This document shows, one piece after another, positions 17,426 through 34,578 of a stretch of DNA of 64,000 bases. The position numbers were made by a program, and so were the translations under genes. The DNA comes from Bacteroidales bacterium. GTDB lineage: Bacteria; Bacteroidota; Bacteroidia; Bacteroidales; JAAUTT01. The notes under the pieces are model-generated. The model was not told the DNA's origin. It worked only from the letters and a program-made list of their open reading frames with translations, and did not search any database. Numbering within the stretch: the stretch's first letter is position 1; each line of letters opens with the position of its first letter. The stretch covers positions 2,696-66,695 of the forward strand of contig JANYAP010000068.1 of NCBI GenBank assembly GCA_025361285.1, written 5' to 3'.

Positions 17426-17456
17426 AAGCTATCTTGAGAAAGATAGCTTTTTTTTT
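17426..17456 (+). terminator. rho-independent terminator
   Basis: Stem AAGCTATCT / AGATAGCTT, 6-nt loop, then a long T-run. Confidence 0.7.
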
Positions 17457-17472
17457 GATATTGACAATTTAA

Positions 17473-17480
17473 TATATTTG
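17473..17480 (+). promoter_or_regulatory. Bacteroidota -7 promoter box TATATTTG (TAnnTTTG)
   Basis: Exact match to the consensus, about 100 nt upstream of the DUF4139 gene start. Confidence 0.3.
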
Positions 17481-17578
17481 TAGTTAATTTTTATTTTTGA
17501 GGTGTATAATCAATTTACACCTCAAAAATGAATTTACAAATTTTTCATTGTATATACCTTATTAAAATACTAATAAAT

Positions 17579-19201
17579 ATGAAAAAACTAATAATTACCT
17601 TATTTACAGCACTTCACACGTTTTTGTTAACTTACTCGCAGAACACACCATTGCCTGTAACCTCGCAAATTAAGGAAATAACCGTTTTTGCAAGTGGAGC
17701 GCAAGTAACTCGCAATGGGTCGGTATCGTTAAAATCTGGTAATCAGCAGTTAGTATTCGAAAATCTTCCGCAATCTATTAATGCTCAAAGTATTCAAGTT
17801 TCCGGCAAAGGTAATTTTACTATATTATCGGTTAATAATCAGATTAATTATCTAAAACCTCAGCAAAAGTCGAAAGAAATTTTAACGTTGGAAGATTCGC
17901 TGGAAACACTTCAAAATAAGCTTAATGCAAACAGTGCATCGTTAGAGATTTTAAAGGACGAGGAATCGCTTCTCAAAGCTAATCAATCATTGGGAGGTTC
18001 GCAAACTGGCGTAAAGGTGGACGAGCTGAAAGCCGCCGTGGACTTGTTTCGCACTTACTTAAACGACATAAAAACAAAATCGCTTAAGCTATTGGCCAAC
18101 AACAAACGCCTTAACTATCTTATAAATAATGTTAATAACCAGTTAACTCAACTTCGCAATAAAACAAATACGCCTACCAGCGAGGTAGTGGTTACGGTGT
18201 TAGCTCCGATGCCTGTAAAAGCACAATTAACGCTTTCGTATTTGGTGTCCGAAGCCTCATGGATTGCTGCTTACGATGTGCGTGCAACCGATGTTGACAA
18301 GCCAGTTGAGTTAACTTACAAAGCAAAAGTTTCGCAGTCGTCGGGCGAAAGCTGGGATAATGTAAAACTTACCCTTTCTACTGGCAATCCAGCAGTTAGC
18401 GGCAGTTCGCCTGAACTTTACCCATGGTATCTCACTATTATTGAGCCACAACCAATATCTCGATTAAAATCGAAGAGAGCCGAAGTTAGTTCTGCATCAC
18501 CAATGGCAGTTGATAAGGTTATGGAAGAAGATATGTACGAATTAAACGAAGTAGCCACAACCTCGCAACTCTATACAGAGATTAAAATGAATCAAACTTC
18601 AACCGAATTTGCTATCGACCTTCCTTACAACATTCTTACTGATGGAAAACAGTACACCGTTGAGGTTAAGTCGTTTACGCTTTCGGCAACATACCAATAT
18701 TATTGCGTGCCAAAAATTGATACCGATGTATTTTTACTTGCTAAAATTACTGGTTGGGAGGACTTGAACCTAGTGTCGGGCGAAACAAGTTTATTTTTCG
18801 AAGGCACATATGTGGGTGCGGCTTATATCGACACTCAAAACACTAAGGATACCATGAATGTTTCGCTGGGGCGCGATAAAAGCATTGTAGTTACCCGAAC
18901 TCGCCAAAATGACTTTACCTCGAAAAAACTTATCGGTTCCACCCGAAAGGACACACGCTCATTCGAAATTACAGCTCGCAACACGAAGAAAAAGCCAATA
19001 AACATAATTATTGACGATCAGATACCAATTTCAACTACCAAAGAAATTGAAGTTGAATCGACCAATATTGTAGGCGGAACTCTCGATAAGGCTACGGGAA
19101 AAATATCGTACCGAATACAATTGCAGCCTGCCGAAAGTAAATCATTTATAAATAGTTATACTATTAGTTATCCCAAAGGTAAAACGGTAGTGCTAGAATA
19201 A
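17579..19201 (+). CDS. DUF4139/DUF4140 (MuiA-like) secreted protein
   Basis: Signal peptide 'MKKLIITLFTALHTFLLTYSQ', a central coiled coil and a beta-rich C-terminus. Family call is from memory. Start moved to the second ATG. Confidence 0.6.
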   Translation: MKKLIITLFTALHTFLLTYSQNTPLPVTSQIKEITVFASGAQVTRNGSVSLKSGNQQLVFENLPQSINAQSIQVSGKGNFTILSVNNQINYLKPQQKSKEILTLEDSLETLQNKLNANSASLEILKDEESLLKANQSLGGSQTGVKVDELKAAVDLFRTYLNDIKTKSLKLLANNKRLNYLINNVNNQLTQLRNKTNTPTSEVVVTVLAPMPVKAQLTLSYLVSEASWIAAYDVRATDVDKPVELTYKAKVSQSSGESWDNVKLTLSTGNPAVSGSSPELYPWYLTIIEPQPISRLKSKRAEVSSASPMAVDKVMEEDMYELNEVATTSQLYTEIKMNQTSTEFAIDLPYNILTDGKQYTVEVKSFTLSATYQYYCVPKIDTDVFLLAKITGWEDLNLVSGETSLFFEGTYVGAAYIDTQNTKDTMNVSLGRDKSIVVTRTRQNDFTSKKLIGSTRKDTRSFEITARNTKKKPINIIIDDQIPISTTKEIEVESTNIVGGTLDKATGKISYRIQLQPAESKSFINSYTISYPKGKTVVLE

Positions 19202-20658: not shown

Positions 20659-20758
20659 TCTCAACTCTTGGCTTTTGGCACTTGGCTTGAATCTTGAATC
20701 TTAGTTCTTGGCTCTTAGTTCTTAGTTCTTGGCTCATGGCTCTTGGTTCTCAACTCTG
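20659..20758. repeat. degenerate heptamer tandem tract (TCTTGGC/TCTTAGT/TTGAATC..., ~14 units) bounded by TTCTCAACTCT direct repeats
   Basis: Read directly. The plus strand is pyrimidine-rich. Confidence 0.85.
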
Positions 20759-20915
20759 GATATCAACACCCGTTATCACACCCCTAACAAAAAGAAATAG
20801 CCTATTTTGAAATTAAATTGAAGTTTTATGCAAATTGTCGAGCTTTTTAACTAATTTAGGAATATCAATTAAACACTATATTGTTAGATAACTGAAAAGG
20901 TTAATAAACATTTTA

Positions 20916-20923
20916 TAGATTTG
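20916..20923 (+). promoter_or_regulatory. Bacteroidota -7 promoter box TAGATTTG (TAnnTTTG)
   Basis: Exact consensus match 37 nt upstream of the cheR ATG. Candidate promoter for the signalling operon. Confidence 0.35.
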
Positions 20924-20959
20924 TAATTTTAGTAAAGACTGAAGACTCTCGCTTTTATT

Positions 20960-21841
20960 ATGACGATAACCAGCCTTGATTTAGAACAGTTTATAACTGC
21001 TATTAGAAATTATTCGAATTACGACTTAAGCGAGTATTCCGACAAGTCGTTAAAGCGAAGATTGGCTAAGGTATTGGTGGATTATAAGCTCGAATTAAGC
21101 GGCTTGATTACCCAAATGAAAAACAACCAACAAATTGTAGAGCAAGTTGTTAAGGATATCACAGTAAATACCACCGAACTTTTTCGCGATCCTCTTGTTT
21201 GGCAGCATCTGCGATACGTTACACTGCCCAAACTTCAAAACCAGCCAACTATAAATATTTGGCATGCAGGCTGTTCAACAGGGCAGGAAGTGTATTCGAT
21301 GCTTATGATTTTGAACGAACTCGACCTTTTGAATCGTACTAAACTGTACGCCAGCGACATAAATACCGATGTACTTCAAACCGCAAAAAAAGGTCAGTAC
21401 AAATACCGGTTCAATATTGCATACCTCGACAATTTCGATAAAGTAATGAAGGAAAACCCATTCAATTACGAACAGTTTTTCGATATTCCTTATTCGAAAT
21501 ATTTTGAAATTGATAAAGAGAAAGACTTTATTAAAATGCATCCATTTCTTACCGAAAAGCCTATATTCAAAAAGCTCGACTTGGTTAAGGATTGTAACTT
21601 ATTTTATGTTAAATTCGACATTATTATATGTAGAAACGTAATTATATATTTTAATTACGATCTTCAGAACAAAATTTTCGACCTTTTTCATAACAACTTG
21701 TATAACAACGGCTACTTATGGCTCGGAATGCACGAATCGATACTTGGGCCTTTTGCACCTAAATTCGACAAAATTGGACAAGTTTATCAGAAAAAGGAAC
21801 ACGTATTTCCGAATCTCGACATTGGGAAAAAGAATAAATAA
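20960..21841 (+). CDS. cheR: CheR-type protein-glutamate O-methyltransferase
   Basis: 'TELFRDPLVW', 'IWHAGCSTGQEVYSMLMIL', 'ASDINTDVLQTAKKGQY' and 'ICRNVIIYF' match the CheR N-domain and SAM-binding motifs. Confidence 0.85.
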   Translation: MTITSLDLEQFITAIRNYSNYDLSEYSDKSLKRRLAKVLVDYKLELSGLITQMKNNQQIVEQVVKDITVNTTELFRDPLVWQHLRYVTLPKLQNQPTINIWHAGCSTGQEVYSMLMILNELDLLNRTKLYASDINTDVLQTAKKGQYKYRFNIAYLDNFDKVMKENPFNYEQFFDIPYSKYFEIDKEKDFIKMHPFLTEKPIFKKLDLVKDCNLFYVKFDIIICRNVIIYFNYDLQNKIFDLFHNNLYNNGYLWLGMHESILGPFAPKFDKIGQVYQKKEHVFPNLDIGKKNK

Positions 21842-21945
21842 ATATATTTATGCACCAGATATTTTAAAATTGAGCATAACATACTATATTTGAGCAATGG
21901 AGGATGTACAAAAGCAATTAAATATCGAAAACTGTTTTAAATCAG

Positions 21946-24633
21946 ATGATAAGAATTAATCAAAATATAAAATCAAGGCTTACTCGCTTTACGGGAACCA
22001 TTGTTCTCCTGTTCGGTTTATTCTTTATTTTTTCGTACAACGATTTTTTCTTTGCTCGCAAAACATTCGATTTTCAAAATCGCATTAATGTTTTAAACAC
22101 CACACCTGGGCAATTAGTTTTACTTCATAACTCCTTTATAAAGAGCGATATTTTGAGTGAGCGGTTTTATTATAGCGAGAAAAGTATATCGCTCGATAGC
22201 CTATTTTTTATAACTGAACTATTTCAAAATCAACTCGATAGCTTAAGTAGTTCGCAATATTTTTCACCTAAAAATGTAACCCGCATTCAAATTAAGGCAC
22301 TTAATATGCAGTGCAGTAAGTTGCGCGACACATACACCGCTCTTAAACAACAGATTGTAAAGCGAGGATACCTTAAAACTGGTCAGGCTGGTGAAATTGA
22401 CCGGTTTATGAACTTTCTTTTAGAGTTTGCAGCTGCCGAAAAAAATATATCCCTTATGAGGTCTATTGTCGAAATCAATAGAATTCAATCGGCATATCAG
22501 TTGGAAAAAAACAATGAGCAAATTCAACTTCTTTTCGACCGTGTTGACATACTCAAAGTGCTTCTTTCAATGCAAGATAGCAAAGTTTGCGAGGGTATGT
22601 CGGAAACAAACAGGCTTAAGCTAATAAAAGAACTCGGCACATACGCCGCACTAGTGGTGGAACTGCAAAAAACCGATATTAAAATTGGGTTTTCGGAAGG
22701 CGAAGGTACCATAGGCGAAGCACAATTGCAATTGGCTATTTTAGGCGACAAGGCGAAGGCTATTTATGGTGATATTAATGCCGAAATAAATAGAAAAATT
22801 TTAATTCAGTTTCTAGCTAAAACGTTATTGCTGATAGTATTACTAGCTTTTTATTTGTGGTTTATGTTGCGGTTTTCGAAGTCGGTGGCGCAATCGGTAC
22901 AGCAAATTAAAATTTTCGCTTCGGAATTGGTACTTGGTAAAATGCCTAAACCACTTACACTTACAACTAGCGCCGACTTTATATCAATCTCGGAACTTTT
23001 AAACAAATTCGCAACAAGCTTACGCGAAAAAATTCGGTTCGCATCAAAACTCGGTTCCGAAAAAGCTAATGTTACCATGTTGCCTCTTAGCGACGACGAT
23101 ATACTAGCTAATGCCTTGCTAAACATGGAGAAAAGCCTTAAAAAAGCTACCGAGGAAGATCAAAAATATAAGGTTGAAGAGCAAAAACGAGCTTGGACCA
23201 ACGAGGGTTTGGCGAAATTCGGCGAAATACTTCGCATGCAAACCGACAATCTGGCAACGCTATCCGATGCCATTGTAACTAATCTCGTAAAATACCTTAA
23301 TGCCAATCAAGGCGGCATATTTCTTTATAACGACGATAATAAAAACGACATACACCTTCAACTTATTTCAGCATTCGCGTTCGATCGAAAAAAAATTCTT
23401 ACCAAACGAATTGAACTAGGCGAAGGTCTTGTAGGCACTTGCGCTCTCGAAAAGCAAACCATTATTATTACCGATATTCCCGATGGTTATATGGAAATTA
23501 CATCAGGCCTTGGTGACGCTGCACCGCGAAGCATATTGATTGTACCGCTGAGGTCGGAAGAGGTTATTTTCGGAATATTAGAAATTGCATCGCTTAATTT
23601 TTTCCAACCTCACGAAATAGAATTTGTCGAAAAAATTGCCCAGAGTACAGCATCCACCTTTGCCACAGTAAAAATTAATATAAACACATCGCAATTATTG
23701 GCTCAGTCGAAAAAGCAAGCCGAAGAAATGGCTCAGCAAGAAGAGGAAATGCGCCAAAACCTCGAGGAATTGCAGGCTACACAGGACGAGTCGGAACGTA
23801 GAGAAGCCGAAATAAATAGCTTACTTGTTGCCGTCGACGCTTCGGCGCTGGTTATTCAAACCGACATGGAAGGTCGAATAATTGAGGTTAATAAGAAATT
23901 TGCGTCGATAGTTAAAATGGTTCGCGATGAGCTTGTGGGAACATATTTGAGAAGCATTTTTGTGTTTAACGCCGAAACCGACGAATATTACAACCTACTT
24001 TCCGAATTAAAACACGGCAAAATAATTAACCGAAACGAAATATTGGAGTTCGCCGACTGTAGCAAAGAATATCTCGTTCTTAACTATTCACCAATACTCG
24101 ATATCGATGGTAAGCCATATAAAGTGCTGGGCATAGCCACCAACATTACCGATAAAATTGTGCTAGAAAAGGCTATATCGAATAAAGACAATGAGTTGCA
24201 CGACATGGAATATCATCTTTCTCATTTCAACCAACTTATCGATGCAGGCTTTATAAAATGCGAATTGTCGGCCGACGGAATTGTAATTAACGCCAACGAA
24301 AATTACGCCCAAATATCGGGTTATACTATTCAGGAGTCGTTAAATACCGACTACCGCTCGTTTTTAAAACCCGACGAGCTAAATCAATTTGAACTTATTT
24401 GGACTGAAGTTTTAAAAGATAAGCCAAGTAAAATTGTAGTGAAGCGAACATCGCCCGTGGGCGACGAACATTGGCTTATGGCTAGTTTCGTTCCTTTTAA
24501 AAACAAATTAGGAGAAATAACCAAAGTAATGTTGGTAGCGCAAGATATTACCGAAAAAAAATTGCGATATCAGGTTTTGGAAGAAGCTAATAAAGAGATT
24601 GAACGACTAAAAGGAATGCAAAACCAAGGCTGA
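21946..24633 (+). CDS. membrane sensor: 2 TM + HAMP-like linker + GAF + Glu/Gln-rich coiled coil + 2 PAS; no enzymatic output domain
   Basis: TM helices at about aa 18-30 and 293-310. GAF region: 'GEGLVGTCALEKQTIIITDIPDGYMEITSGLGDAAPRSILIVPL'. Coiled coil: 'AEEMAQQEEEMRQNLEELQATQDESERREAEI'. Two PAS-like blocks follow, and the protein ends without a kinase, cyclase or phosphatase domain. Confidence 0.75.
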   Translation: MIRINQNIKSRLTRFTGTIVLLFGLFFIFSYNDFFFARKTFDFQNRINVLNTTPGQLVLLHNSFIKSDILSERFYYSEKSISLDSLFFITELFQNQLDSLSSSQYFSPKNVTRIQIKALNMQCSKLRDTYTALKQQIVKRGYLKTGQAGEIDRFMNFLLEFAAAEKNISLMRSIVEINRIQSAYQLEKNNEQIQLLFDRVDILKVLLSMQDSKVCEGMSETNRLKLIKELGTYAALVVELQKTDIKIGFSEGEGTIGEAQLQLAILGDKAKAIYGDINAEINRKILIQFLAKTLLLIVLLAFYLWFMLRFSKSVAQSVQQIKIFASELVLGKMPKPLTLTTSADFISISELLNKFATSLREKIRFASKLGSEKANVTMLPLSDDDILANALLNMEKSLKKATEEDQKYKVEEQKRAWTNEGLAKFGEILRMQTDNLATLSDAIVTNLVKYLNANQGGIFLYNDDNKNDIHLQLISAFAFDRKKILTKRIELGEGLVGTCALEKQTIIITDIPDGYMEITSGLGDAAPRSILIVPLRSEEVIFGILEIASLNFFQPHEIEFVEKIAQSTASTFATVKININTSQLLAQSKKQAEEMAQQEEEMRQNLEELQATQDESERREAEINSLLVAVDASALVIQTDMEGRIIEVNKKFASIVKMVRDELVGTYLRSIFVFNAETDEYYNLLSELKHGKIINRNEILEFADCSKEYLVLNYSPILDIDGKPYKVLGIATNITDKIVLEKAISNKDNELHDMEYHLSHFNQLIDAGFIKCELSADGIVINANENYAQISGYTIQESLNTDYRSFLKPDELNQFELIWTEVLKDKPSKIVVKRTSPVGDEHWLMASFVPFKNKLGEITKVMLVAQDITEKKLRYQVLEEANKEIERLKGMQNQG

Positions 24634-24644
24634 AAACAACTTAT

Positions 24645-25463
24645 ATGCTCGAACTGGGAATAGTTGATACAAGAAATGTTATTCGAACAATAGCCGAAAA
24701 GTATAATTACGACTTTTCCGATTATTCGTTAACGGCTTTCAAACGTCGGCTTGAGAAAATTATTGAACAACAAAACCTTAAATATTCCGATGTTTTAATT
24801 ACAAAACTACGAAACAACAGCGGTTATTTCGAGCAATTTATCGACGAACTGGCAATACCGTCAACTGAAATGTTTCGCGATCCATCGCTTTGGCGAGTTT
24901 TACGATACGAGTTATTACCTTCATTAATAAGCGAGTACGGTAATAATTTTAAAATATGGCTTCCCAATTCAGTATCGGGCGATGAGCTTTTTTCGTTGGC
25001 AATAACATTACACGAGTTAAATATGCTTAACAAAGTGCAAATATTTGTAACTGCCTTAAGCACAATTTCTATAGATAATATACAAAGTGGAACTTTGGCA
25101 GCAAGCAAGCTCGAATTAAGCACCGACAATTACATACGTGCCAATGGAACTAGCGAGTTTACTAATTATTACAAAACAGAAAACAACAAAGTATTTAGAG
25201 ACAAATCGTTAATTAAAAACGTTACTTTTTCCCGACAAAGCTTGAATATAGAGCCTCCAGCACAAGGCATTAAACTAATTTTGTTTCGAAATAAAATGAT
25301 ATATTACAACCAAACCCTTCAAAGCAAGGTGTTAACACAATTGTTTAACTCTTTAGTAACTGGAGGGCATTTAATTGTTGGAACCAAGGAATCGATAAAC
25401 ACGTTTTTTGGTAGCAACGAATTTTCATTAGTTAACAATACCGAAAGCATCTATAAGCGCTAA
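24645..25463 (+). CDS. divergent CheR-like protein with degenerate SAM-binding motifs
   Basis: 'TEMFRDPSLWRVL' is conserved. The Gly-rich loop reads 'IWLPNSVSGDELFSLAITL' (CheR consensus W-S-A-G-C-S-T-G-E-E), 'ATDI' is replaced by 'VTALS', and 'CRNVLIYF' by 'FRNKMIYY'. Confidence 0.7.
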   Translation: MLELGIVDTRNVIRTIAEKYNYDFSDYSLTAFKRRLEKIIEQQNLKYSDVLITKLRNNSGYFEQFIDELAIPSTEMFRDPSLWRVLRYELLPSLISEYGNNFKIWLPNSVSGDELFSLAITLHELNMLNKVQIFVTALSTISIDNIQSGTLAASKLELSTDNYIRANGTSEFTNYYKTENNKVFRDKSLIKNVTFSRQSLNIEPPAQGIKLILFRNKMIYYNQTLQSKVLTQLFNSLVTGGHLIVGTKESINTFFGSNEFSLVNNTESIYKR

Positions 25464-25465
25464 AA

Positions 25466-26023
25466 ATGATTTATAAGGCAATTATGATAGGAGGGTCGGC
25501 CGGAAGTTTTCAGGTGGTGACAAAAATACTGAGCGCGCTGCCTAAAACGCTTAATATGCCCGTGTTTTTAAGTCTTCATAGACTAAAGCACGTTCGGTCG
25601 GGTTTTCTCGAAGCCTTGTCGTTAAAATCGAACCTTCCAATTATAGAGCCCAACGATAAAGAGCAGATAAAACCAGGAAGAGCATATTTGGCACCAGCTA
25701 ACTATCACATGTATATCGAGTTAGGAAACCGAATTGCCTTATCAACCGAGGAAGCTGTGAATCATTCCCGCCCTTCTATCGATTTGTCGTTTATAACTGC
25801 TGCTCAGGCTTATCGCGAAAAGCTTATCGGAATTATGCTGTCGGGAGCCAACAGCGATGGTGCTTACGGAATGAAAAAGGTAAACGAACATAATGGTCTT
25901 ACCATAGTTCAAGATCCGAACGAATGCCAGGTAAAAACAATGACCGAGGCAGCAATAAAAATTACCAATATAAATCATGTTTTTTCTACTGAACAGATTA
26001 TTAATTATTTACTAAAATTATAA
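25466..26023 (+). CDS. cheB: CheB-type protein-glutamate methylesterase, catalytic domain only (no receiver domain)
   Basis: 'IMIGGSAGSFQ' (Ser), 'SLHRLKH' (His), 'SRPSIDLSF' and 'LSGANSDGAYGM' (Asp) match the order of the CheB catalytic triad. The protein is only 185 aa. Confidence 0.8.
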   Translation: MIYKAIMIGGSAGSFQVVTKILSALPKTLNMPVFLSLHRLKHVRSGFLEALSLKSNLPIIEPNDKEQIKPGRAYLAPANYHMYIELGNRIALSTEEAVNHSRPSIDLSFITAAQAYREKLIGIMLSGANSDGAYGMKKVNEHNGLTIVQDPNECQVKTMTEAAIKITNINHVFSTEQIINYLLKL

Positions 26024-26037
26024 AAAGAAACCGTTCC

Positions 26038-26808
26038 ATGAAGCTGAACCTTTCTTATAAATACTTGAACCTGATTATATTCCTTCTTTTTGTTGGATTA
26101 GTTTTTGCGCTTTTCGGTGCAATTAGTAATATTTCGTATAATAGTGCCGATAAACCAATAATAACATACATTTTTCTGTTTTTATTACTTATTCTTGGTA
26201 CAGCCTGGTTTTTAGTTACATATAAAAATTGCGAAAATTCCGAAGTGCTTTCTACGGCGACCTCATTGGTGAGCAATGCATCGAAACAAACCGATAGTTA
26301 CACAAATAAATCGATAGATGAGAATCAAGAAATTGCTAGCAACCACGATGTTACCCATTTAATTCCCGCTAATTGCAAAACTACCGATGAATTTTGCGAA
26401 ACCCTACTTCGTAATGTTGCTCAGGAATTTAGCATTGTGCAGGGTTTAATGTACTTAAAAAATGAAAATGCCGACTTTTACGAGTGCAAAGCACAGTACG
26501 CTTATTTCTCCGAATCGAAACCTCAGGATTTTAAGTCGGGCGAAACTTTACCCGGACAAGCGGTAAAAAACAGAACCATTGTAACCCTTGCCGATGTGCC
26601 TGATAATTATATGACTATTGCTTCGGGGCTCGGGAAAAGCGATGTTACATATTTGGTTTTTGTACCATTGTTAATTAACGAAACCGTTGTAGGGCTGATA
26701 GAGTTTGCAACTTTTACGCAAATAAAGTTCGATACTCCTAAAATGCTCGAAAGTATTGCAGATAAAGCTGCTGAGATTATTGTAAAAATCAATAAAAAAG
26801 TAAAATAA
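26038..26808 (+). CDS. small membrane-anchored GAF-domain protein
   Basis: Two N-terminal TM helices, then a GAF domain paralogous to its neighbours ('VPDNYMTIASGLGKSDVTYLVFVPLLINETVVGLIEFA'). Confidence 0.7.
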   Translation: MKLNLSYKYLNLIIFLLFVGLVFALFGAISNISYNSADKPIITYIFLFLLLILGTAWFLVTYKNCENSEVLSTATSLVSNASKQTDSYTNKSIDENQEIASNHDVTHLIPANCKTTDEFCETLLRNVAQEFSIVQGLMYLKNENADFYECKAQYAYFSESKPQDFKSGETLPGQAVKNRTIVTLADVPDNYMTIASGLGKSDVTYLVFVPLLINETVVGLIEFATFTQIKFDTPKMLESIADKAAEIIVKINKKVK

Positions 26809-26812
26809 TTAT

Positions 26813-29428
26813 ATGTTGGTAAAGGTTAACTATATGCTCGATAACGCAAAAGCACGTGCCGTAATTATCGGAGTGGCTGTGAGCATTGTTGTTCCGGTTA
26901 TTGCCTGGATGATGGATATAATTGTGGCTGGCCAAATACTCAGCCTTGCTAATCTTTTGCAAATACATTTAAATCATCCTAGCCTTTTTCTTATCGATAT
27001 TATACCAATTGCGGTTGGGGTAATTATCTATATATCAATTAGTATAAGAGAAAAAGAAAAAAGCTTCTTCGAAGAAAAAATACTTCAACGCGATGAACGA
27101 ATAAATAAAAACGCATCGTTTGCAAAACGCATTGGCGAAGGCGATTATACAAGTCCTTTCGATTCGTCGGCTGGAGACGATGCACTGGGCGAATCGTTGC
27201 TTTTAATGCGCGACAACCTAATTTTAAATACCCATAAGGAAGCCGAACAAAGCTGGATAGCTGCTGGAAAGGAACAAATATCGAATGTTCTTCGTATTCA
27301 TAATAAAATTGATGTTCTTGCCTACGAAACATTGGTTTCGCTTACCAAATACATTAATGCAGTGCAAGGTGCTTTCTATTTGTTCGACGAAAACAAACAA
27401 GTGCTTACCAATATTTCAACTTATGCATTTAACCGCAAAAAATATATTAATCAGGAGTTTAAGGTAGGGCAGGGGCTTATTGGCGAGTGCGCTTACGAAA
27501 TGGATTTGGTTTATCGAACCGAAATTCCCGACGATTATGTTACAATTACCTCTGGTATTTTGGGCGATAAACGTCCTAAATCGATACTTATAGTTCCGCT
27601 AGTTTCCGACGAAAAGCTTCAAGGTGTAATAGAATTTGCATTTTTACTCGACGAGCTACCAGCACTTACTCGTCACTTTATGAAAGAGTTGGGCGAAATT
27701 ATTGCCCGTACAGTATTTAACCTTAGCGTAAACGAAAAAACGGAAACACTGCTCGAAGAATCGCGGCAAATGACAGGCGAACTTCAGGAAAACGAAGAGC
27801 AACTTAGGCAAAGCGCCGAAGAAATGCGTGCTACACAGGAAGAACTTCAGCGCTCAAACGAAAAACTCGAAGGACAAATTACCGAAGTGGAAAATGCACA
27901 AAAACGGCTTCACTCACTTCTCGAAAATGCTTCGGAAATTATTTTTATTTATGATGAAAGTCTTAATCTGGCATATATAAGTCCTTCAGTATCAAGCATA
28001 CTTGGATTTACGCCCGATGAAATGATGAAAGGAAAGGATTTCGACCGCCTTACACGTAAAGGCGAAGCCGAACTCCGATCCATGTTTAATCGATTGCTCG
28101 AAAATCCTACTGAACCTATTACAATTCAGTACACTTATATGAAAAAGGATGGGCAAAAAATATTTCTCGAAACAACAGGAAGGAATCTATTGTCCGATCA
28201 GGCATTGCATGGCATAATACTAAATTCGCAGGATATAACCGAACGTAAGCGCGCCGAAAAAGAAGAGCGGATGAAAAGCAAGATGCAAGCCCTCTCCGAA
28301 AACTCGCTCGATTTAATTATTCGGTTAAACATGCATGGTATGTTCTTCTACGCCAACCCAGTAGTGGAAGATTATATTGGCATGAAAAGCACTGAAATTA
28401 TGAATAAAACAATTCAGGATACTCAGATGCCCGAAAGTTTGCTAAACTACTTTCAAACAACACTCGTTGAGGTAAAAGCCTCGCCACAAAAGCGTAACAA
28501 CCAAATTTCGATTGCCGTTCAACTAGGCGAAAAGGAAGTGCAACGCATAATGAGCCTCGATGCTATTCCAGAATTTAATGAAAACGAATTGGAAACGATA
28601 TTGTTTGTAGGGCACGATATAACTGAGGCTAAACGTATTGAATTAGAAATTGCCGACAAAAATCGTAAAATTGAAGACAGTATAAACTATGCCGAAAGAA
28701 TTCAGTCGGCCATACTTCCCGACAACGACTTTATACGCGAATATCTGCCAAAATCGTTCATATTTTATAAGCCTCGCGATGTTGTTAGCGGCGATTTTCC
28801 TTGGTTCTTTAAGCGCGACGATACTCTTTATATTGCTGTAGTAGATTGTACAGGGCATGGTGTGCCAGGAGCTCTTCTTTCGTTCGTAGGCTATTTTATA
28901 CTTAATAATGTGGTGGATCACGATCGCGATTATTCCGCAGCCGAAGTATGCGATTTGCTGCATAATGGTGTGCGACATACACTTAAACAAAATCGCGAAG
29001 ATTCGCAGGGTAGAGATGGCATGGATATTGCCTTGGTAAAGTATAACCCGAAGAAAAACGAAATGCAATATGCAGGAGCCCACCGCCCTCTTTATTTTCT
29101 TCGCAATGGCGAACTAATTGAATATAAGGGCGATAGAAAAGCTATTGGCGGAATACCTTTAGGCAGCAAGCCCGAAAAGAACTTTACTAACTACGTTATT
29201 CCTCTCGAAACTGGCGATAAAGCATTCTTTTTTTCCGATGGATTAACCGATCAGCTTGGCGGTCCCGAATTTAAGAAATTTTCGCCAGGACGAGTACGCG
29301 AAATGATATCGCAAAATTCGAATAACACAATGGAAGAATATAATCAATTGTTCGACAAGGAGTTCTTTATATGGAAAGGCAAAGAAAAGCAAATTGACGA
29401 TGTTTTATTAATAGGAATTGAATTCTAA
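26813..29428 (+). CDS. membrane GAF-PAS-PAS sensor fused to a PP2C/SpoIIE-family Ser/Thr phosphatase (SiaA/RsbU-like)
   Basis: N-terminal TM helices. GAF region: 'GQGLIGECAYE..IPDDYVTITSGILGDKRPKSILIVPL'. Coiled coil: 'ENEEQLRQSAEEMRATQEELQRSNEKLE'. Two PAS blocks follow. The C-terminal 'ERIQSAILP...DVVSGDFPWF...VVDCTGHGVPGALLS...FFFSDGLTDQ' is typical of SpoIIE. Confidence 0.85.
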   Translation: MLVKVNYMLDNAKARAVIIGVAVSIVVPVIAWMMDIIVAGQILSLANLLQIHLNHPSLFLIDIIPIAVGVIIYISISIREKEKSFFEEKILQRDERINKNASFAKRIGEGDYTSPFDSSAGDDALGESLLLMRDNLILNTHKEAEQSWIAAGKEQISNVLRIHNKIDVLAYETLVSLTKYINAVQGAFYLFDENKQVLTNISTYAFNRKKYINQEFKVGQGLIGECAYEMDLVYRTEIPDDYVTITSGILGDKRPKSILIVPLVSDEKLQGVIEFAFLLDELPALTRHFMKELGEIIARTVFNLSVNEKTETLLEESRQMTGELQENEEQLRQSAEEMRATQEELQRSNEKLEGQITEVENAQKRLHSLLENASEIIFIYDESLNLAYISPSVSSILGFTPDEMMKGKDFDRLTRKGEAELRSMFNRLLENPTEPITIQYTYMKKDGQKIFLETTGRNLLSDQALHGIILNSQDITERKRAEKEERMKSKMQALSENSLDLIIRLNMHGMFFYANPVVEDYIGMKSTEIMNKTIQDTQMPESLLNYFQTTLVEVKASPQKRNNQISIAVQLGEKEVQRIMSLDAIPEFNENELETILFVGHDITEAKRIELEIADKNRKIEDSINYAERIQSAILPDNDFIREYLPKSFIFYKPRDVVSGDFPWFFKRDDTLYIAVVDCTGHGVPGALLSFVGYFILNNVVDHDRDYSAAEVCDLLHNGVRHTLKQNREDSQGRDGMDIALVKYNPKKNEMQYAGAHRPLYFLRNGELIEYKGDRKAIGGIPLGSKPEKNFTNYVIPLETGDKAFFFSDGLTDQLGGPEFKKFSPGRVREMISQNSNNTMEEYNQLFDKEFFIWKGKEKQIDDVLLIGIEF

Positions 29429-29458
29429 TTTACTCAATCAAACTAAAATGTAACTGGT

Positions 29459-30043
29459 ATGGGCACAAATGAAAAGAGAGATGTAAGGGGATTTTTGGAA
29501 TTTGTTTACGAGTTCTATAAATCGATGAAAGAACACGAAATTACGCTTGTTTACGAAGGCGAAATTACTCACCAAATTACCAAGGCATTCACCTCCCTCA
29601 CCGAGTCGAATATGGCGAAAGAGGAGGAATCGAATATGGTACAAAAAAAGGTGTTTCACGTAATGGTGGAATGTTTGCAAAACATTAGTAAGCACGCCGA
29701 CGATTATGGCGCCAACGATTATTTATTCTCGGGCCGTGGTATTTTTATGGTGTCGAAAGGGAAGGACGAATATTCCGTAACAACTGGTAATGCAATTGAG
29801 CATACCCGCATGCCCGAGTTGAAACGTATGCTCGAACAGGTAAATAGCCTCGATAAAGACGAACTTACCGAGCTATACAAGAAACAAATTAAAGAAGGAA
29901 GATTATCAGATAAAGGTGGTGCAGGTCTTGGTTTTATTGACATTAAGCGCAAAACAGGCCGTAATCTCGAATATCACTTTCTGCCAATTAACGATAACTC
30001 ATCGTTCTTCTTATTAACATCTACTATTTCACGAAATGCTTAA
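29459..30043 (+). CDS. SiaB-like (RsbW/SpoIIAB-type GHKL) protein kinase
   Basis: 194 aa. 'VMVECLQNISKHA' (N-box-like) and 'GGAGLGFIDIKRKTG' (G2 box). It sits immediately before a DUF1987 gene, as in siaB-siaC. Confidence 0.65.
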   Translation: MGTNEKRDVRGFLEFVYEFYKSMKEHEITLVYEGEITHQITKAFTSLTESNMAKEEESNMVQKKVFHVMVECLQNISKHADDYGANDYLFSGRGIFMVSKGKDEYSVTTGNAIEHTRMPELKRMLEQVNSLDKDELTELYKKQIKEGRLSDKGGAGLGFIDIKRKTGRNLEYHFLPINDNSSFFLLTSTISRNA

Positions 30044-30059
30044 ATAAAATATTGAAACT

Positions 30060-30437
30060 ATGGAAGTTTTCAAAATTATGGGTACTGACGATACCCCAGC
30101 AGTTACACTCGATGCCGCAAACAACATATTCGAAATCTCAGGTCGTTCGCTACCTGAAGATGTAAATGCTTTTTACAAGCCAATAATAAGTTGGATCGAT
30201 AAGTACAATATGGCGCCAAACGCAAAAACTATCTTTAACTTCAAGCTTGTATATTTTAATACAGCTTCGTCGAAGATGTTGCTCGATGTACTCATGAAAC
30301 TTGAAGATCTATTTAAAGCTGGTAAAGATATTACTGTTCGCTGGCAATATCCTGATGATGATGAGGATATGAAAGAGGCAGGCGAGGAATATGCCGATAT
30401 TGTTGATGTTCCGTTCGAGCAAATTGCAATATCCTAA
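30060..30437 (+). CDS. DUF1987 / SiaC-like regulatory phosphoprotein
   Basis: 125 aa. 'TPAVTLDAANNIFEISGRSLPEDVNAFY' and 'FKLVYFNTASSKMLLDVL' are family-typical. Residue 68 in the FNT motif is Thr. Confidence 0.7.
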   Translation: MEVFKIMGTDDTPAVTLDAANNIFEISGRSLPEDVNAFYKPIISWIDKYNMAPNAKTIFNFKLVYFNTASSKMLLDVLMKLEDLFKAGKDITVRWQYPDDDEDMKEAGEEYADIVDVPFEQIAIS

Positions 30438-30546
30438 TTCGAGTCTCTAGAAAAACAAATTTAATGCTCTATCTTATAATTGGGGCATTTATAATAATTA
30501 ATTGCCATAACCGGCTATACATGGCTTTTCATCAGAATAGAAATTT

Positions 30547-33500
30547 ATGAGTGAAGAGATTTTAAAAGCGTTGATGCAACTGTTTGCAATTATTGCTAAA
30601 CAGGATGAGGGTGTGGAACTTAGCGAACGAGAGTACGTTAAAACGTTCCTTACCCTACAGTTGAATGACGAAGCTGTAAATGAATATCTGGCACTGTTCG
30701 ATAGTTTTGCAGGTCTCGATAAAACCAGCGACGACAGCAACGAAGAGACTAGCAAAAAAAAGCTTACCTCGGTAAAGGATTCGGTTCGCATATTGGGCAT
30801 CTGTAAAAAAATTAATAAAACCCTTACGCAGGAGCAGAAGGTAGTTGTATTGGTGCGCCTTTTTGAGTTGGTAAATGCCGATCGCAAGTTTACCGATCAA
30901 CGAATGGCTATAATTAACACCGTTGCCGAAGTTTTTAATCTCGCTAAAGACGAGTTTAAGAGCATCGAAACATTTGTGGTTAAAAATCGCCCCGAAGCAC
31001 TCGATCAGCCCGATGTGTTGGTAATTGCCGACAAACCCGTTGCTAACCAACACAGCAAATTTATTCAAACCGAAAAACTCGATGGAAACCTTTATATTCT
31101 GCGAGTTGCTAGTGTCGACTTGTATTTCCTTAAATATACCGGTCGCGAGGATTTAATGCTTAACGGACTCGGTATTTCTAATAGGCGAATATACTTGTAT
31201 GCCAGTGGCAGTGCGGTAAAAATGCCCAAAGGAAAACCAGTTTATTACAGCGATGTGGTTGCTCACTTTCTGGCCGATATTACCTCTAACCGAATTTCGT
31301 TCGAAGTTACTAACCTCGAATTCCGCTTCCCCAATGGAAATGTAGGCTTACGAAATATTAGCTTTTCCGAGGGACAAGGCAAATTAATTGGAATAATGGG
31401 CGCTAGTGGAGCAGGCAAAACAACCTTGCTAAACGTATTATGTGGCTCGGAATTGCCATACAAGGGCGAAGTAATTATTAATGGTCATAATCTTCATAAA
31501 GAGAAGTATAACCTCGAAGGCGTTATTGGGCTTATTCCACAGGACGACCTACTTATTGAAGAACTAACCGTTTATGAAAACTTATATTATAACGCAAAAC
31601 TGTGTTTTAAAGACCAAACCGAAGAGGAAATAAACGACCGTGTAATCCGCACACTTTCTAGCCTTGGATTGTTGGAACGTAAGGATTTAAAAGTTGGTTC
31701 GCCACTTAACAAAACCATAAGCGGAGGCCAGCGGAAACGCTTAAATATAGCGCTCGAATTAATACGCGAACCATCTATTTTGTTTGTAGATGAGCCTACC
31801 TCAGGGCTTTCATCGCGCGACTCGGAAAACGTAATGGATTTACTTCGAGAACTTGCGCTTAAAGGAAAGCTTATTTTTGTAGTTATTCATCAACCATCGT
31901 CGGAAATATACAAGATGTTCGATAAGATGATTATCCTCGACACTGGTGGTTATCTGATATATTACGGAAATCCAGTTGAGGCAGTAATGTATTTTAAACG
32001 CATTGATGCTCAAATTAATAGCGATGTGGGCGAGTGCCCAGTTTGTGGAAACGTTAATCCCGAATTAATTTTTAATATAATTGAAGCTAAGGTAGTTGAC
32101 GAGTTTGGGCGATATACCGACAAGCGTAAAATTACTCCTACAAAATGGGAAGGTGTTTATGCCGACAACTTTCACCCCGAAAAAATGATGTCGGTGATGG
32201 AGGATCCCCCAAAATCGTTAAATATCCCAAACTGGCTAAACCAGATAAAAATATACACCATACGCGATTTTGTTTCGAAAGTAAGTAACACGCAATATAT
32301 AGCTCTAAATCTGCTCGATGCGCCTTTACTAGGCTTTATTTTGGCCTATGTTATAAGGTATATCTCCGATCCGGGTTCCGATGTTTATATTTTCCGTGAA
32401 AACGAAAATATTCCTATTTATATTTTCATGAGCCTTATAGTGGCTCTGTTTCTGGGGCTTATAGTTAGTGCCGAAGAAATATTTCGCGATCGAAAAATTC
32501 TAAAGCGCGAAGGTTTTCTTAACCTCAGTCGATCGAGTTATCTGCTTTCGAAAATCTTTATCTTATTCGTAATAAGCGCAATACAAAGTTTTACATTTGT
32601 GTTTATAGCAAATTCCATTCTGGGTATTAAGGATATGTATTTTACATATTGGTTTGCACTATTCACAACAGCTGCCTTCGCTAACATGCTGGGCTTAAAC
32701 GTTTCAGCTTCGTTTAATTCGGCTGTAACCATCTACATACTTATTCCTTTGTTAATGATTCCGATGATGATTCTTAGCGGAGCAATGTTTAGTTTCGATA
32801 AACTGAACAGGAACGTAGGAAGTGTGGATAAAGTGCCGCTATTAGCTGAAGTAATGGTAACTCGTTGGGCTTACGAAGCTTTGGTTGTGCATCAATATAA
32901 GGACAATAAGTTTGAAAAAGCGTTCTACGAAATTGAAAAGCGCGAAAGCAATGCAGATTTTAAGCAAGTTCACCTAATACCAGAGCTACAAAAGCGTTTG
33001 GACGATTGCAATGCCGAATTTTCGGTATCAGGAAAAATTACAAAAACCAAAGTTCAACTCGATGTGCTTAGGAACGAAATAGGTAAAGAATTGACAGTTA
33101 ATACTGATTTACCATTCCAAAACGCCGATGGAATTATTGCCGAAAAGTATAATGCAAAGATGGCTAAAGCGTTACAGTCTTTTATTGATAAAATGAAAGA
33201 TTCGTACACCAAAAAGTTTATGCAAGCCAATAAGGAAAAGGAAGATAAAATTGGTAACGAGCTTAAGAAAGATCCAGAAAGGTACCGACAGTACAAAAAT
33301 GCATATCACAACGAAAACCTGTCGGATTTGGTTAAAAAGGTACTCGAAAAAAACAAAATCCTCGAATACAATGGCCAACTAGTTCAACAAGTTGATCCTA
33401 TATACATGGATCCAACCATAAGTAATGAATTAAGCGTGCGCTCTCATTTTTTTGCGCCACGTAAACCGTTGTTAGGCAATTATTACGACACCTATTGGTA

Positions 33501-33621
33501 CAACATGGTTGTAATATGGCTTTTCACCATAATTTTGTACCTAGCACTTTACTTCGAATGGTTTTTAAAATTCATGAATTTGTTCGGAAAACTAAAACTT
33601 ACAAGAGAAAGTTCAAAATAA
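30547..33621 (+). CDS. ABCG/ABC-2-type ATPase-permease fusion with a ~270-aa N-terminal extension (TerB-like helical module + beta-rich module) and a C-terminal coiled-coil/TM tail
   Basis: Walker A 'GIMGASGAGKTTLLNVL', signature 'ISGGQRKRLNIA', Walker B 'ILFVDEPTSGLS'. Six TM helices at about aa 600-790. The N-terminus 'ILKALMQLFAIIAKQDEGVELSEREYV' is TerB-like. Confidence 0.85.
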   Translation: MSEEILKALMQLFAIIAKQDEGVELSEREYVKTFLTLQLNDEAVNEYLALFDSFAGLDKTSDDSNEETSKKKLTSVKDSVRILGICKKINKTLTQEQKVVVLVRLFELVNADRKFTDQRMAIINTVAEVFNLAKDEFKSIETFVVKNRPEALDQPDVLVIADKPVANQHSKFIQTEKLDGNLYILRVASVDLYFLKYTGREDLMLNGLGISNRRIYLYASGSAVKMPKGKPVYYSDVVAHFLADITSNRISFEVTNLEFRFPNGNVGLRNISFSEGQGKLIGIMGASGAGKTTLLNVLCGSELPYKGEVIINGHNLHKEKYNLEGVIGLIPQDDLLIEELTVYENLYYNAKLCFKDQTEEEINDRVIRTLSSLGLLERKDLKVGSPLNKTISGGQRKRLNIALELIREPSILFVDEPTSGLSSRDSENVMDLLRELALKGKLIFVVIHQPSSEIYKMFDKMIILDTGGYLIYYGNPVEAVMYFKRIDAQINSDVGECPVCGNVNPELIFNIIEAKVVDEFGRYTDKRKITPTKWEGVYADNFHPEKMMSVMEDPPKSLNIPNWLNQIKIYTIRDFVSKVSNTQYIALNLLDAPLLGFILAYVIRYISDPGSDVYIFRENENIPIYIFMSLIVALFLGLIVSAEEIFRDRKILKREGFLNLSRSSYLLSKIFILFVISAIQSFTFVFIANSILGIKDMYFTYWFALFTTAAFANMLGLNVSASFNSAVTIYILIPLLMIPMMILSGAMFSFDKLNRNVGSVDKVPLLAEVMVTRWAYEALVVHQYKDNKFEKAFYEIEKRESNADFKQVHLIPELQKRLDDCNAEFSVSGKITKTKVQLDVLRNEIGKELTVNTDLPFQNADGIIAEKYNAKMAKALQSFIDKMKDSYTKKFMQANKEKEDKIGNELKKDPERYRQYKNAYHNENLSDLVKKVLEKNKILEYNGQLVQQVDPIYMDPTISNELSVRSHFFAPRKPLLGNYYDTYWYNMVVIWLFTIILYLALYFEWFLKFMNLFGKLKLTRESSK

Positions 33622-33675
33622 TTATTAAATTTGTATTAATAGCAATAAAGTAAACAATAATTTAATTATCCTGCT

Positions 33676-34578
33676 ATGATTAAGCAACTAGTTTATTTAT
33701 TTATATGTAGCGTATTGGTGTTATCTTCCTGTAAAACAGGTGGATCAAAAAGTGGTGGAGAATTTGGCGAAAGCGACAGTTTAGCCAATGATGGAGCTTT
33801 ACCGATTTCGAAGGGCGCTATGGAAGATTTAGTTCAAAACATATCGTCGCCAATAGAAATGGCGGCTTTAATTAAGAGCCTTGGTGTACCTTTTTCACAG
33901 AAATATTTGGCACCAACTGATAATCTCGATAACTATAACACCAGCAATGCAAAAGCTGTAAATTTGGGCGTTTTTGGAGCCGATTTAGGTTATCTTAATA
34001 TGTACAGCAAAACATCGTCGGTGCTGTCGTATATTTCGGCAATAAAAACATTGTCCGATGGAATAAATGTTGGTCAGTTTTTTGATTTTACTACGTTAAA
34101 GCGGCTTGCAACCAATAACGAAAATATCGATTCGTTAATGTACATCTCCATACATAGTTTTAATGTAATGGACGAGTATTTACGTAAAAACAATAGGAGT
34201 AACCTTAGCGCCCTAATGGTTGCAGGTGTTTATATCGAGGGGCTTTACCTAATGACACAGGTGGCTAAAGAAAAACCCAATAGAAAATTGGCCGAAAGTA
34301 TTGGCGACCAGAAAACAATTTTCGAACAGATGCTGCTGATATTGAAAAACTATTCGAAAGACCCGTATTTCGCCGAGTTGATAAAAAATATGGAATTACT
34401 TAAAAAAGAGTTTTCGGAAATTACAATAACAATTGAAGTTGGTGAACCTAAATCGGTTGAAAAAAATGGAATGCTTACTATTATTCAAACCTCTAAAAGC
34501 ACCGTTCATATTACCGACGAACAATTAAAAAGAATTATACAGCAAACCGAAATATTACGTAACAGTCTTATTAAGTAA
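33676..34578 (+). CDS. hypothetical lipoprotein (mainly helical)
   Basis: Lipobox 'VLVLSSC' followed by a Gly/Ser linker. No family recognised. Lies 54 nt after the ABC gene. Confidence 0.6.
   Translation: MIKQLVYLFICSVLVLSSCKTGGSKSGGEFGESDSLANDGALPISKGAMEDLVQNISSPIEMAALIKSLGVPFSQKYLAPTDNLDNYNTSNAKAVNLGVFGADLGYLNMYSKTSSVLSYISAIKTLSDGINVGQFFDFTTLKRLATNNENIDSLMYISIHSFNVMDEYLRKNNRSNLSALMVAGVYIEGLYLMTQVAKEKPNRKLAESIGDQKTIFEQMLLILKNYSKDPYFAELIKNMELLKKEFSEITITIEVGEPKSVEKNGMLTIIQTSKSTVHITDEQLKRIIQQTEILRNSLIK

Follow-up and report, generated by a model that had tools for sequence, protein, structure and literature searches.

What might a CheR methyltransferase and a CheB methylesterase act on when none of the usual partners of chemosensory adaptation is encoded beside them? 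To our knowledge, adaptation by CheR and CheB has been demonstrated biochemically only on chemoreceptors that signal via CheA. The question is raised by a gene cluster in a 64-kb stretch of DNA from a Bacteroidales bacterium (GCA_025361285.1, contig JANYAP010000068.1), which we call the window and whose positions serve as coordinates throughout. Here, CheR- and CheB-type genes lie among genes for GAF- and PAS-containing sensors, a PP2C-type protein phosphatase, a kinase and a phosphoprotein related to SiaB and SiaC of Pseudomonas aeruginosa, and an ABC exporter. As a preliminary description of this DNA had stated, the core of a chemosensory array and a diguanylate cyclase are absent from the window: a Pfam scan of its open reading frames (ORFs) of at least 150 aa gave no match to CheA, CheW, MCPsignal or GGDEF. 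With a probability of roughly 0.6, we read the Che and Sia genes as the signalling half of an eleven-gene unit that would derive from the MAC2 class of methyl-accepting coiled-coil systems, a SiaA-like PP2C domain having replaced the histidine-kinase output.

The preliminary description had listed eight genes on one strand, from CheR to SiaC, and their order as well as the gaps between them (104, 11, 2, 14, 4, 30 and 16 nt) were reproduced exactly from the ORFs. Pfam and NCBIfam, used for domain calls on the cluster proteins, support its CheR, CheB, GAF, PAS, SpoIIE, SiaB-like and DUF1987 assignments, and the motif it had noted in all three GAF domains is visible in the translations. Both of its boundaries have to be moved, however. 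Position 20916, given as the start of the block, is non-coding and belongs to a promoter-like box, with the ORF itself beginning at an ATG at 20960; and the block does not end at SiaC, since conservation runs on to 35101 and takes in an exporter, a lipoprotein and a secreted protein that had been missed. The features of the unit, numbered g1 to g11 for its genes, are:

20916–20923 (+): TAGATTTG, putative Bacteroidetes-type -7 promoter box (TAnnTTTG), read from the sequence, 37 nt 5' of the CheR start codon
20960–21841 (+): g1, CheR methyltransferase with predicted catalytic competence (Pfam CheR and CheR_N)
21946–24633 (+): g2, sensor without output domain, composed of transmembrane helix (TM), extracytoplasmic region, TM, GAF, EE-heptad coiled coil and two PAS domains (Pfam)
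23695–23820 (+): candidate methyl-accepting coiled coil of g2, residues 584–625, LLAQSKKQAEEMAQQEEEMRQNLEELQATQDE (QAEEMAQQEEEMRQNLEELQATQDE), with heptad-spaced EE(M/L)
24645–25463 (+): g3, CheR paralogue, predicted pseudo-methyltransferase (Pfam CheR, 2.3e-22)
25466–26023 (+): g4, stand-alone CheB methylesterase/deamidase without receiver (Pfam CheB_methylest, 5.9e-48)
26038–26808 (+): g5, small membrane GAF protein without coiled coil (Pfam GAF_2, 3.6e-09)
26813–29428 (+): g6, sensor/effector with two TMs, HAMP-like segment, GAF, EE-heptad coiled coil, two PAS domains and SiaA-like PP2C (Pfam, NCBIfam)
27749–27880 (+): candidate methyl-accepting coiled coil of g6, residues 313–356, LLEESRQMTGELQENEEQLRQSAEEMRATQEELQRSNEKLEGQI (GELQENEEQLRQSAEEMRATQEELQRS), with EEMRAT at 336–341
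29459–30043 (+): g7, SiaB-family Ser/Thr protein kinase (Pfam DUF6272, NCBIfam SiaB_fam_kinase)
30060–30437 (+): g8, SiaC-family phosphoprotein (Pfam SiaC, 3.6e-41); codon of the predicted phospho-acceptor Thr68 at 30261–30263
30547–33621 (+): g9, TerB (residues 1–152), FHA-like domain (157–232), ABC ATPase, ABC-2 (ABCG-type) membrane domain, C-terminal helical region and final TM (Pfam, structural model)
33676–34578 (+): g10, predicted lipoprotein with lipobox LSSC (no Pfam match)
34649–35101 (+): g11, small secreted protein of 150 aa with signal peptide and TTG start (no Pfam match)
35140–35166 (+): GGTTGACTCAGAAAGTCAGCCTTTTTT, hairpin and T-run, putative terminator read from the sequence

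The preliminary description had asked whether its gene order is kept in relatives and what lies downstream. Synteny was followed around the best 80 of 320 SiaC (g8) relatives among species-representative genome contigs, and these 80 come from Bacteroidales-type genomes (Salinivirgaceae, Tenuifilaceae, Perlabentimonas and others). The genes g1, g3, g4, g5, g6, g7 and g8 occur in that order in 59 of the 62 loci with sufficient upstream DNA; g2 stands between g1 and g3 in 36 of the 59 complete loci and is missing from a rumen-associated subgroup of Salinivirgaceae. Downstream of SiaC, 67 loci extend sufficiently far, and every one of them has g9 and then g10; wherever g10 was found, again in 67 loci, g11 comes next. 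The flanking genes, in contrast, are not conserved, an LPG-synthase-like gene being found upstream in 4 loci and TonB plus HflX genes downstream in 1. Since g9–g11 are kept and the flanks are not, we take the conserved unit to be g1–g11, that is, 11 genes spanning 20960–35101.

The set is also carried by Cytophagales (Microscilla, Cytophagaceae and Roseivirgaceae metagenome-assembled genomes, MAGs), among them the cultured Fulvivirga maritima (L162), whose complete genome (CP089980.1) holds all of it at about 3.04–3.06 Mb, in the order g2-like sensor, CheR, CheB, TM-GAF protein, PP2C sensor, SiaB, SiaC, TerB-ABC exporter and two small proteins, with a 143-aa ORF at the position of g11. In PP2C-type loci, those of Cytophagales included, a g5-type gene separates CheB from the PP2C sensor. 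In F. maritima (L162:10001-13082) and in a further locus, L163, the exporter ATPase and membrane domain are separate genes, while the window has a single fused gene of 1024 aa; the two genes overlap by 17 nt in F. maritima. In both loci the separation may be a real split or an assembly frameshift.

Is the unit transcribed as one? In a consensus scan, the stretch from g8 to g9 showed no terminator-like site, and the hairpin with T-run at 35140–35166 is likely to mark the end of the transcription unit. We infer that the TAGATTTG box acts as a promoter, and a counterpart, TAGCTTTG, is found 5' of g1 both in L001, the window's closest relative among the loci retrieved, and in L075. A scan for sigma-70-type promoters was uninformative, shuffled sequence yielding more such sites. 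A further motif, T(A/T)A(C/T)TAATTTAG(G/A)A, lies at about 20858–20872, 75–100 nt 5' of the g1 start codon; it is kept in the window and in L001, L002, L003 and L040 and may be bound by a regulator or form an upstream part of the promoter. Farther out (20686–20750, 210–270 nt 5' of the CheR start codon), about nine units of TCTTGGC or TCTTAGT form an array with a period of 7 nt. Its candidacy as a regulatory element of the cluster is unsupported: the array is absent upstream in relatives (L001 and others) and is therefore not part of the conserved cluster.

How might such a unit work? Signals would be perceived by the membrane-anchored g6, g2 and g5 through their GAF and PAS domains, and by g2 also through its extracytoplasmic region. 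Glutamates in the EE(M/L) coiled coil between GAF and PAS would be methylated by g1 and demethylated or deamidated by g4; as this CheB lacks a receiver, any feedback would have to arise from a preference of the enzymes for certain substrate conformations, not from phosphorylation by CheA, and g3 would take a non-catalytic role, as adaptor or competitor. The PP2C activity of g6 would depend jointly on ligand state and on methylation; by analogy with the chemistry of P. aeruginosa SiaABC, it would dephosphorylate SiaC-P at Thr68, with g7 putting the phosphate back. One phospho-form of SiaC would then bind the cytoplasmic TerB/FHA-like N terminus of g9, and this binding would gate the export of envelope cargo handled jointly with g10 and g11. 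Taken as a complete chain, in which glutamate methylation adapts a PP2C sensor that is neither an MCP (methyl-accepting chemotaxis protein) nor a kinase, the signal passes through the SiaB/SiaC threonine switch to the TerB/FHA-like head of g9, and adaptation thereby controls envelope export, the proposal is a tentative one, to which we give appreciably less than even odds.

The predicted phospho-switch and its possible target

All three components of a SiaABC-type switch are recognisable. The PP2C region of g6 matches the NCBIfam model prot_phos_SiaA (3.8e-49) and aligns with the SiaA-PP2C structure 6K4E (2.2e-29), with the metal-binding motifs RDVVSGDF, DCTGHGVPGAL, SDGLTDQ and DDV kept. Its partner g7 matches Pfam DUF6272 (8.8e-42) and, scoring 171.8 bits where the cut-off is 85, NCBIfam SiaB_fam_kinase; it aligns at 2e-12 with chain 6KKO_A, deposited under the name 'putative serine phosphatase', which we take to be P. 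aeruginosa SiaB. In the alignment of g8 to P. aeruginosa SiaC (6KKO_C, 3.9e-15), YFNTAS faces YLNTSS (N67-T68-S69), and T68 is the residue targeted by SiaB in that organism (PMC7647112, PMC8457831). Family and subfamily cut-offs of Pfam and NCBIfam are passed by g7 and g8, and the NCBIfam equivalog cut-offs are reached by none of the g6 PP2C, g7 and g8. By this kinship, the phosphorylation state of SiaC would be set by the PP2C domain together with SiaB.

Compared with SiaABCD of P. aeruginosa, the window shares the gene order of phosphatase, kinase, SiaC and presumptive target, along with the conserved N67-T68 of SiaC. It differs in having no SiaD or any other GGDEF protein, with an ABC exporter gene following SiaC instead, in the GAF domain, coiled coil and two PAS domains encoded 5' of the PP2C domain, and in the addition of CheR and CheB. 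Because there is no cyclase and all three proteins fall short of the equivalog cut-offs, the window cluster is not a SiaABCD system. What, then, does SiaC act on? In P. aeruginosa, its unphosphorylated form binds and activates SiaD, the product of the adjacent gene, at parallel stalk helices, and the authors of that study propose that DUF1987 proteins in general regulate the product of the adjacent gene (PMC8457831).

In the present case, the adjacent gene is g9, with Pfam matches to TerB, ABC_tran and ABC2_membrane. Its best sequence matches in the PDB are CDR1, ABCG2 and ABCG1 (the last over residues 266–754), and its core is clearly, by sequence, an ABCG-type half-transporter. An AlphaFold model of the N terminus (pLDDT 85.6) places a beta domain after the TerB helical bundle, and nearly all top Foldseek matches of this beta domain are FHA domains (probability 0.9–1.0, root-mean-square deviation of 2.7 Å over 81 columns), albeit with weak E-values of 0.008–0.05. 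The downstream g10 carries the lipobox LSSC with an invariant Cys19. Among its 2810 homologues, all source names listed read 'hypothetical protein'; its model (pLDDT 79.7) combines a helical bundle with a small beta sheet, and a search for a PDB fold match returned none (best E-value 1). Low-stringency Pfam scans of g10, g11, the g9 linker and the g9 C terminus likewise gave no match. Together, g9–g11 are the likely output of the signalling half.

This arrangement recalls Rv1747 of Mycobacterium tuberculosis, an FHA-domain ABC transporter regulated by Ser/Thr phosphorylation. Like it, g9 has an ABCG-type order of nucleotide-binding and transmembrane domains, here with a putatively FHA-like domain at the N terminus, and is encoded beside genes of Ser/Thr phospho-signalling. 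Unlike it, g9 has TerB in front of the FHA-like domain, and the upstream signalling is a partner switch in place of a Hanks kinase. The FHA-like domain is different, too. R200 of g9 presumably corresponds to the canonical phosphothreonine-binding arginine of FHA domains, but its position is not conserved (the commonest residues are N, 12, and K, 5, of 39); an S-x-x-H loop is not evident in the domain, and its only invariant residues are N206-G207. We have therefore rejected g9 as a true phosphothreonine-binding FHA protein, and recognition of phospho-SiaC by its FHA-like domain can be offered only as a hypothesis.

The unconserved arginine and the weak Foldseek E-values count against the last step of the proposed chain. 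So does L163, where SiaC and Che genes are lacking and a TerB-ABC transporter stands beside a LytTR two-component system; drawn from one genome, this marks the exporter as a separable module to which different regulators can attach. Adjacency by itself is no proof that SiaC controls g9. Might the switch be real and SiaC have another target, either a distant protein such as a diguanylate cyclase or, by feedback, the coiled-coil stalks of g2 and g6? Besides the L163 transporter and the lost arginine, such a reading can draw on the binding of P. aeruginosa SiaC to the parallel stalk helices of SiaD (PMC8457831) and on the output-less g2, which is best conserved in its coiled coil. Yet g9–g11 follow SiaC in 67/67 loci of sufficient downstream length and also across two orders, next to genes that are not conserved; the stretch between g8 and g9 is free of terminator-like sites, and the window of GGDEF proteins. 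Feedback onto g2 is further at odds with a whole subgroup that has lost g2 and retained SiaC. We consider a target other than g9 unlikely, though it is the strongest competitor of SiaC acting on the exporter.

Methylation enzymes and candidate acceptor sites

Could the CheR and CheB proteins of the unit be active? For g1, matches to Pfam CheR (1.8e-35) and CheR_N, an alignment to Bacillus subtilis CheR (5FTW, 6.6e-25) and S-adenosylmethionine (SAM) motifs that are invariant in 55/55 orthologues (WHAGCSTGQE, A(T/S)D(L/I)N and CRNVIIYF) predict catalytic competence. The second CheR paralogue, g3, is a different matter and had already been called degenerate in the preliminary description. At the position aligned with the first Asp of the B. 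subtilis CheR motif A-T-D-I-D, which we take from CheR structures to contact the SAM ribose, the three commonest residues among 62 orthologues are C (24), V (15) and A (6). Asp is not among the residues listed there, and motif I is variable. With the SAM-ribose Asp replaced and motif I variable, g3 is most likely a pseudo-enzyme that has been conserved. In Cytophagales loci there is one CheR, which is intact, so the pairing of an active with a dead CheR is a feature of Bacteroidales.

The CheB protein, g4, consists of 185 aa with a CheB_methylest domain as its only Pfam match, confirming that it is receiver-less. Its residues S11, H38 and D131 align with the GASTGG Ser, QHM His and GNDG Asp of Salmonella CheB (1CHD), which we take to be the catalytic triad S164/H190/D286, and these positions are invariant in 61 diverse stand-alone CheBs. 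With respect to canonical MCP-CheA-CheW adaptation, catalytic residues are thus intact in g1 (SAM motifs) and in g4 (Ser-His-Asp), though not at the SAM site of g3; the differences are a CheB without N-terminal receiver and the absence of MCP, CheA and CheW from the window.

What would these enzymes modify? Both large sensors of the unit, g2 (Pfam GAF_2, 2.4e-16, and two PAS domains, with no domain past residue 872 of 895) and g6 (GAF_2, two PAS domains and a C-terminal SpoIIE domain, 4.9e-19), are devoid of Pfam matches to HisKA or HATPase_c. The preliminary description had also read a HAMP domain in g2. Pfam detects none in g2 or in g6, and low-stringency scans of both N termini gave no match; HAMP is detected only in the corresponding sensors of L156, L128 and, weakly, F. 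maritima. Directly C-terminal to their GAF domains, g2 and g6 carry glutamate pairs at heptad spacing, among them residues 336/337 and 343/344 of g6 and pairs within 593–608 of g2, including EELQAT at 607–612 of g2 and EEMRAT, the sole site of its kind within g6. The classical methylation consensus of chemoreceptors such as Tar and Tsr is Glu-Glu-X-X-Ala-Ser/Thr. In the 18,260 residues encoded by window ORFs, this E-E-x-x-A-S/T pattern occurs exactly twice, both times in the g2 and g6 coiled coils, to which the EE-heptad pairs are confined as well.

The coiled coil of g2 forms a peak of conservation (0.87–0.92 identity to consensus, against 0.1–0.8 elsewhere), and EE[LM]xAT is retained in 29 of 31 g2 orthologues, most of which are merely 33–40% identical to g2 overall. 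EEMRAT is retained in most g6 orthologues, with EEMKIT, EEMRST, EEMQVT, EEMQQT or EEMQKT in the remainder. These patterns suggest that the coiled-coil glutamates of g2 and g6 are reversibly modified by CheR and CheB.

Kinship with stand-alone CheB loci and a probable tie to the MAC2 class

Where does such a combination come from? An exhaustive search of 50%-identity representatives showed the nearest relatives of g4 to be overwhelmingly stand-alone CheBs of about 190 aa; a direct homologue search with g4 gave close orthologues only, among the matches listed. Hits of the stand-alone type include fusions, namely CheB-receiver-PP2C(SpoIIE) (P0251, 608 aa) and CheB-receiver-HisKA-HATPase (P0157), and further ones that are CheB with a C-terminal receiver and CheR-CheB (P0146/P0187 and P0163/P0225). 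By its sequence, P0251 independently ties the stand-alone CheB family to SiaA-like phosphatases. CheB-CheR-PAS fusion kinases (KEGG K13924, MAC1-like), in which EELxxxNEEL repeats are expected directly after CheR, are not among the sequences retrieved. A 10-sequence alignment of diverse stand-alone CheBs was used to retrieve 80 loci, 79 of them with a CheB ORF, from Bacteroidota, Nostoc/Anabaena, Leptospira, Desulfobacterota, Chloroflexota, Gemmatimonadota, Bdellovibrionota and others. CheR lies directly 5' of CheB in 65 of the 79. Forty-nine encode a large GAF protein no farther than 2.5 kb away, and in 47 of the 49 it carries EE-heptad pairs. When the ORFs of 400 aa or more are considered, the EE-heptad motif is found in 53/58 GAF proteins versus 2/194 non-GAF proteins. 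A hybrid histidine kinase forms the output in 41 loci and PP2C in 7, and the kinase-type loci share the post-GAF signature LLEETQxQxEELQxQQEELRQxNEELEE. No match to a Tsr signalling-domain seed or to a CheW seed was found in the 79 loci. An example from Flavobacterium joins a 4HB_MCP sensor of the chemoreceptor type to HAMP, GAF, coiled coil and kinase.

In a neighbour-joining tree, CheBs from PP2C loci form one clade nested among those from loci with GAF/coiled-coil/histidine-kinase sensors, with canonical CheBs outside. Judged by these CheB sequences, the window cluster is shown to be a single-origin Bacteroidota offshoot of kinase-type loci. The MAG that contains L001 has a second locus (L083, contig JANXXY010000339.1), this one of the kinase type, with CheR, CheB and a protein made up of GAF, EE coiled coil, histidine kinase and receiver, from which it follows that the lineage probably runs two CheR/CheB-coiled-coil systems in parallel. 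Separately, a frameshift-ridden metagenomic copy (L164:2286-3374) has a receiver-containing CheB and a hybrid kinase directly 5' of the CheR/CheB/GAF/PP2C/SiaB/SiaC/ABC set.

The kinase-type loci correspond to a class that already has a name, MAC2. MAC1 and MAC2, for 'methyl-accepting coiled-coil', were reportedly introduced by Wuichet and Zhulin in 2010. In a more recent preprint, the two are described as coiled-coil sensor kinases with fused or associated CheB and CheR, and as uncharacterised (bioRxiv 10.1101/2022.05.07.491037, citing Wuichet & Zhulin 2010). As in MAC2, separate genes for CheR and a receiver-less CheB adjoin the sensor gene in the window, where g1 and g4 lie operon-like with g2 and g6; the sensor coiled coil has EE repeats resembling methylation sites, with the same post-GAF signature as in kinase-type loci; and MCP, CheA and CheW are absent from the neighbourhood. 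The differences are that g6 ends in PP2C and not in HisKA/HATPase plus receivers, and that the window adds two extra GAF proteins, a dead CheR paralogue, the SiaB/SiaC switch and the exporter. Without a kinase, the cluster lacks one defining feature of MAC2. It therefore seems best described as a MAC2-derived variant with SiaABC-like output, a likeness drawn from gene layout and the CheB tree, the class itself being defined by class-specific hidden Markov models (MiST). The preliminary description had considered the whole combination uncharacterised; this needs qualification, as the concept of methyl-accepting sensors other than MCPs was named in 2010. In the literature searched, however, no description of the PP2C/SiaBC/exporter variant was found, and its wiring appears undescribed.

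That CheR and CheB act on GAF sensors rather than on MCPs, as the preliminary description had proposed, has strong comparative support in the gene order (59/62), the loci from other phyla and the conserved E-E-x-x-A-T, while the methylation itself we infer. Three features of the acceptor helices caution against it. The g2 and g6 sites fit only the short consensus and do not match the 10-residue pattern [ASTG]2-x2-[EQ]2-x2-[ASTG]2; the A-S/T positions vary in histidine-kinase relatives; and structural constraints alone could account for the conservation of an EE-rich heptad. A fourth caution concerns the enzyme: two Bacteroidales MAGs with PP2C-type loci (L144 and L153) show one CheR each, in which Gly takes the place of the SAM-ribose Asp (VTGIN), so that either these genomes have another CheR gene elsewhere or the residue can be dispensed with.

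Hence CheR and CheB might belong to the pathway and the coiled coil be just a structural signalling helix, the modified site lying elsewhere (a GAF domain, g5, SiaC or the transporter). Such a view profits from the six-residue fit and the variable flanking positions, as well as from the preprint's account of MAC proteins as uncharacterised (bioRxiv 10.1101/2022.05.07.491037). It sits uneasily, though, with the GAF plus EE-heptad coiled coil as constant companion of orphan CheR/CheB across phyla, whatever the output domain, with most orphan CheR/CheB loci having neither SiaC nor the transporter to offer as substrates, and with heptad-spaced acidic pairs that mirror the methylation helices of chemoreceptors such as Tar and Tsr. 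We regard a modified site outside the coiled coil as decidedly improbable. Still less credible, by a wide distance, is that CheR and CheB work for a conventional MCP-CheA-CheW array whose genes lie in another part of the genome, and that they stand beside the GAF sensors by accident: about 80% of the species that carry a MAC system have other chemotaxis systems too, according to the preprint (bioRxiv 10.1101/2022.05.07.491037), and the IMG annotations of a related MAG list CheA and CheW (PMC6275135), but the CheB without receiver is beyond CheA control, operon spacings are 2–14 nt with the same gene order in 59/62 loci, MCP or CheW is nearby in 0/79 stand-alone CheB loci, and the CheB clade is nested among those of sensor-kinase loci, distant from canonical CheB.

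A known system also invites comparison with the reading that we favour, adaptation of coiled-coil glutamates coupled to a SiaABC-like output. In the Wsp system of Pseudomonas, composed of the MCP WspA, the CheR WspC, the CheB WspF and the cyclase WspR among others, CheR/CheB adaptation tunes an output unrelated to motility. The window cluster would resemble Wsp in pairing CheR/CheB-type adaptation with a non-motility output; it has none of the true MCP, CheA, CheW and receiver-containing CheB that Wsp retains.

Why does this matter? The window holds a compact, strongly conserved MAC variant in which candidate methyl-acceptor sites can be named residue by residue, and its likely output is assayable, consisting of a phospho-switch (SiaC Thr68) and a physically adjacent exporter. 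F. maritima, cultured and with the whole set in a complete genome, would represent an entry, open to genetic tests, to an uncharacterised MAC class. If true, our reading would bring Ser/Thr phosphatase signalling and transport control within the reach of receptor-style adaptation, such that sensory adaptation governs envelope export instead of motility or gene expression, and it would open the larger kinase-type MAC2 family (Nostoc, Leptospira, Flavobacterium, Desulfobacterota and others) to experiment.

Other features of the window

About 2.5 kb 3' of the cluster, after HflX, a stand-alone receiver protein of 162 aa is encoded at 37674–38162. Among the 80 related loci, HflX was found in L001 only; the receiver gene had no match, L001 ending before the expected position. 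Scans of the whole window for tRNAs and Rfam families gave no match. The lowest G+C content of the window (0.31) falls at 16001–18000, where about 1.3 kb between 16162 and 17528 are free of ORFs of at least 150 aa. On the minus strand, a 234-aa ORF (61181–61885) comprises a HipA_C kinase domain only and is possibly the toxin, truncated or split, from a toxin-antitoxin pair of the HipAB type. Also on the minus strand, the gene at 2391–3791 fuses a GntR-type DNA-binding domain to a periplasmic solute-binding-protein fold and adjoins a RhaT-like sugar transporter gene. Two large secreted proteins with type IX secretion C-terminal sorting domains are encoded at 7462–12921 and 39479–42073, one of 1819 aa with Por_Secre_tail and the other of 864 aa with Lamin-tail, Big_5 and CHU_C, which is consistent with the Bacteroidota origin of this DNA.

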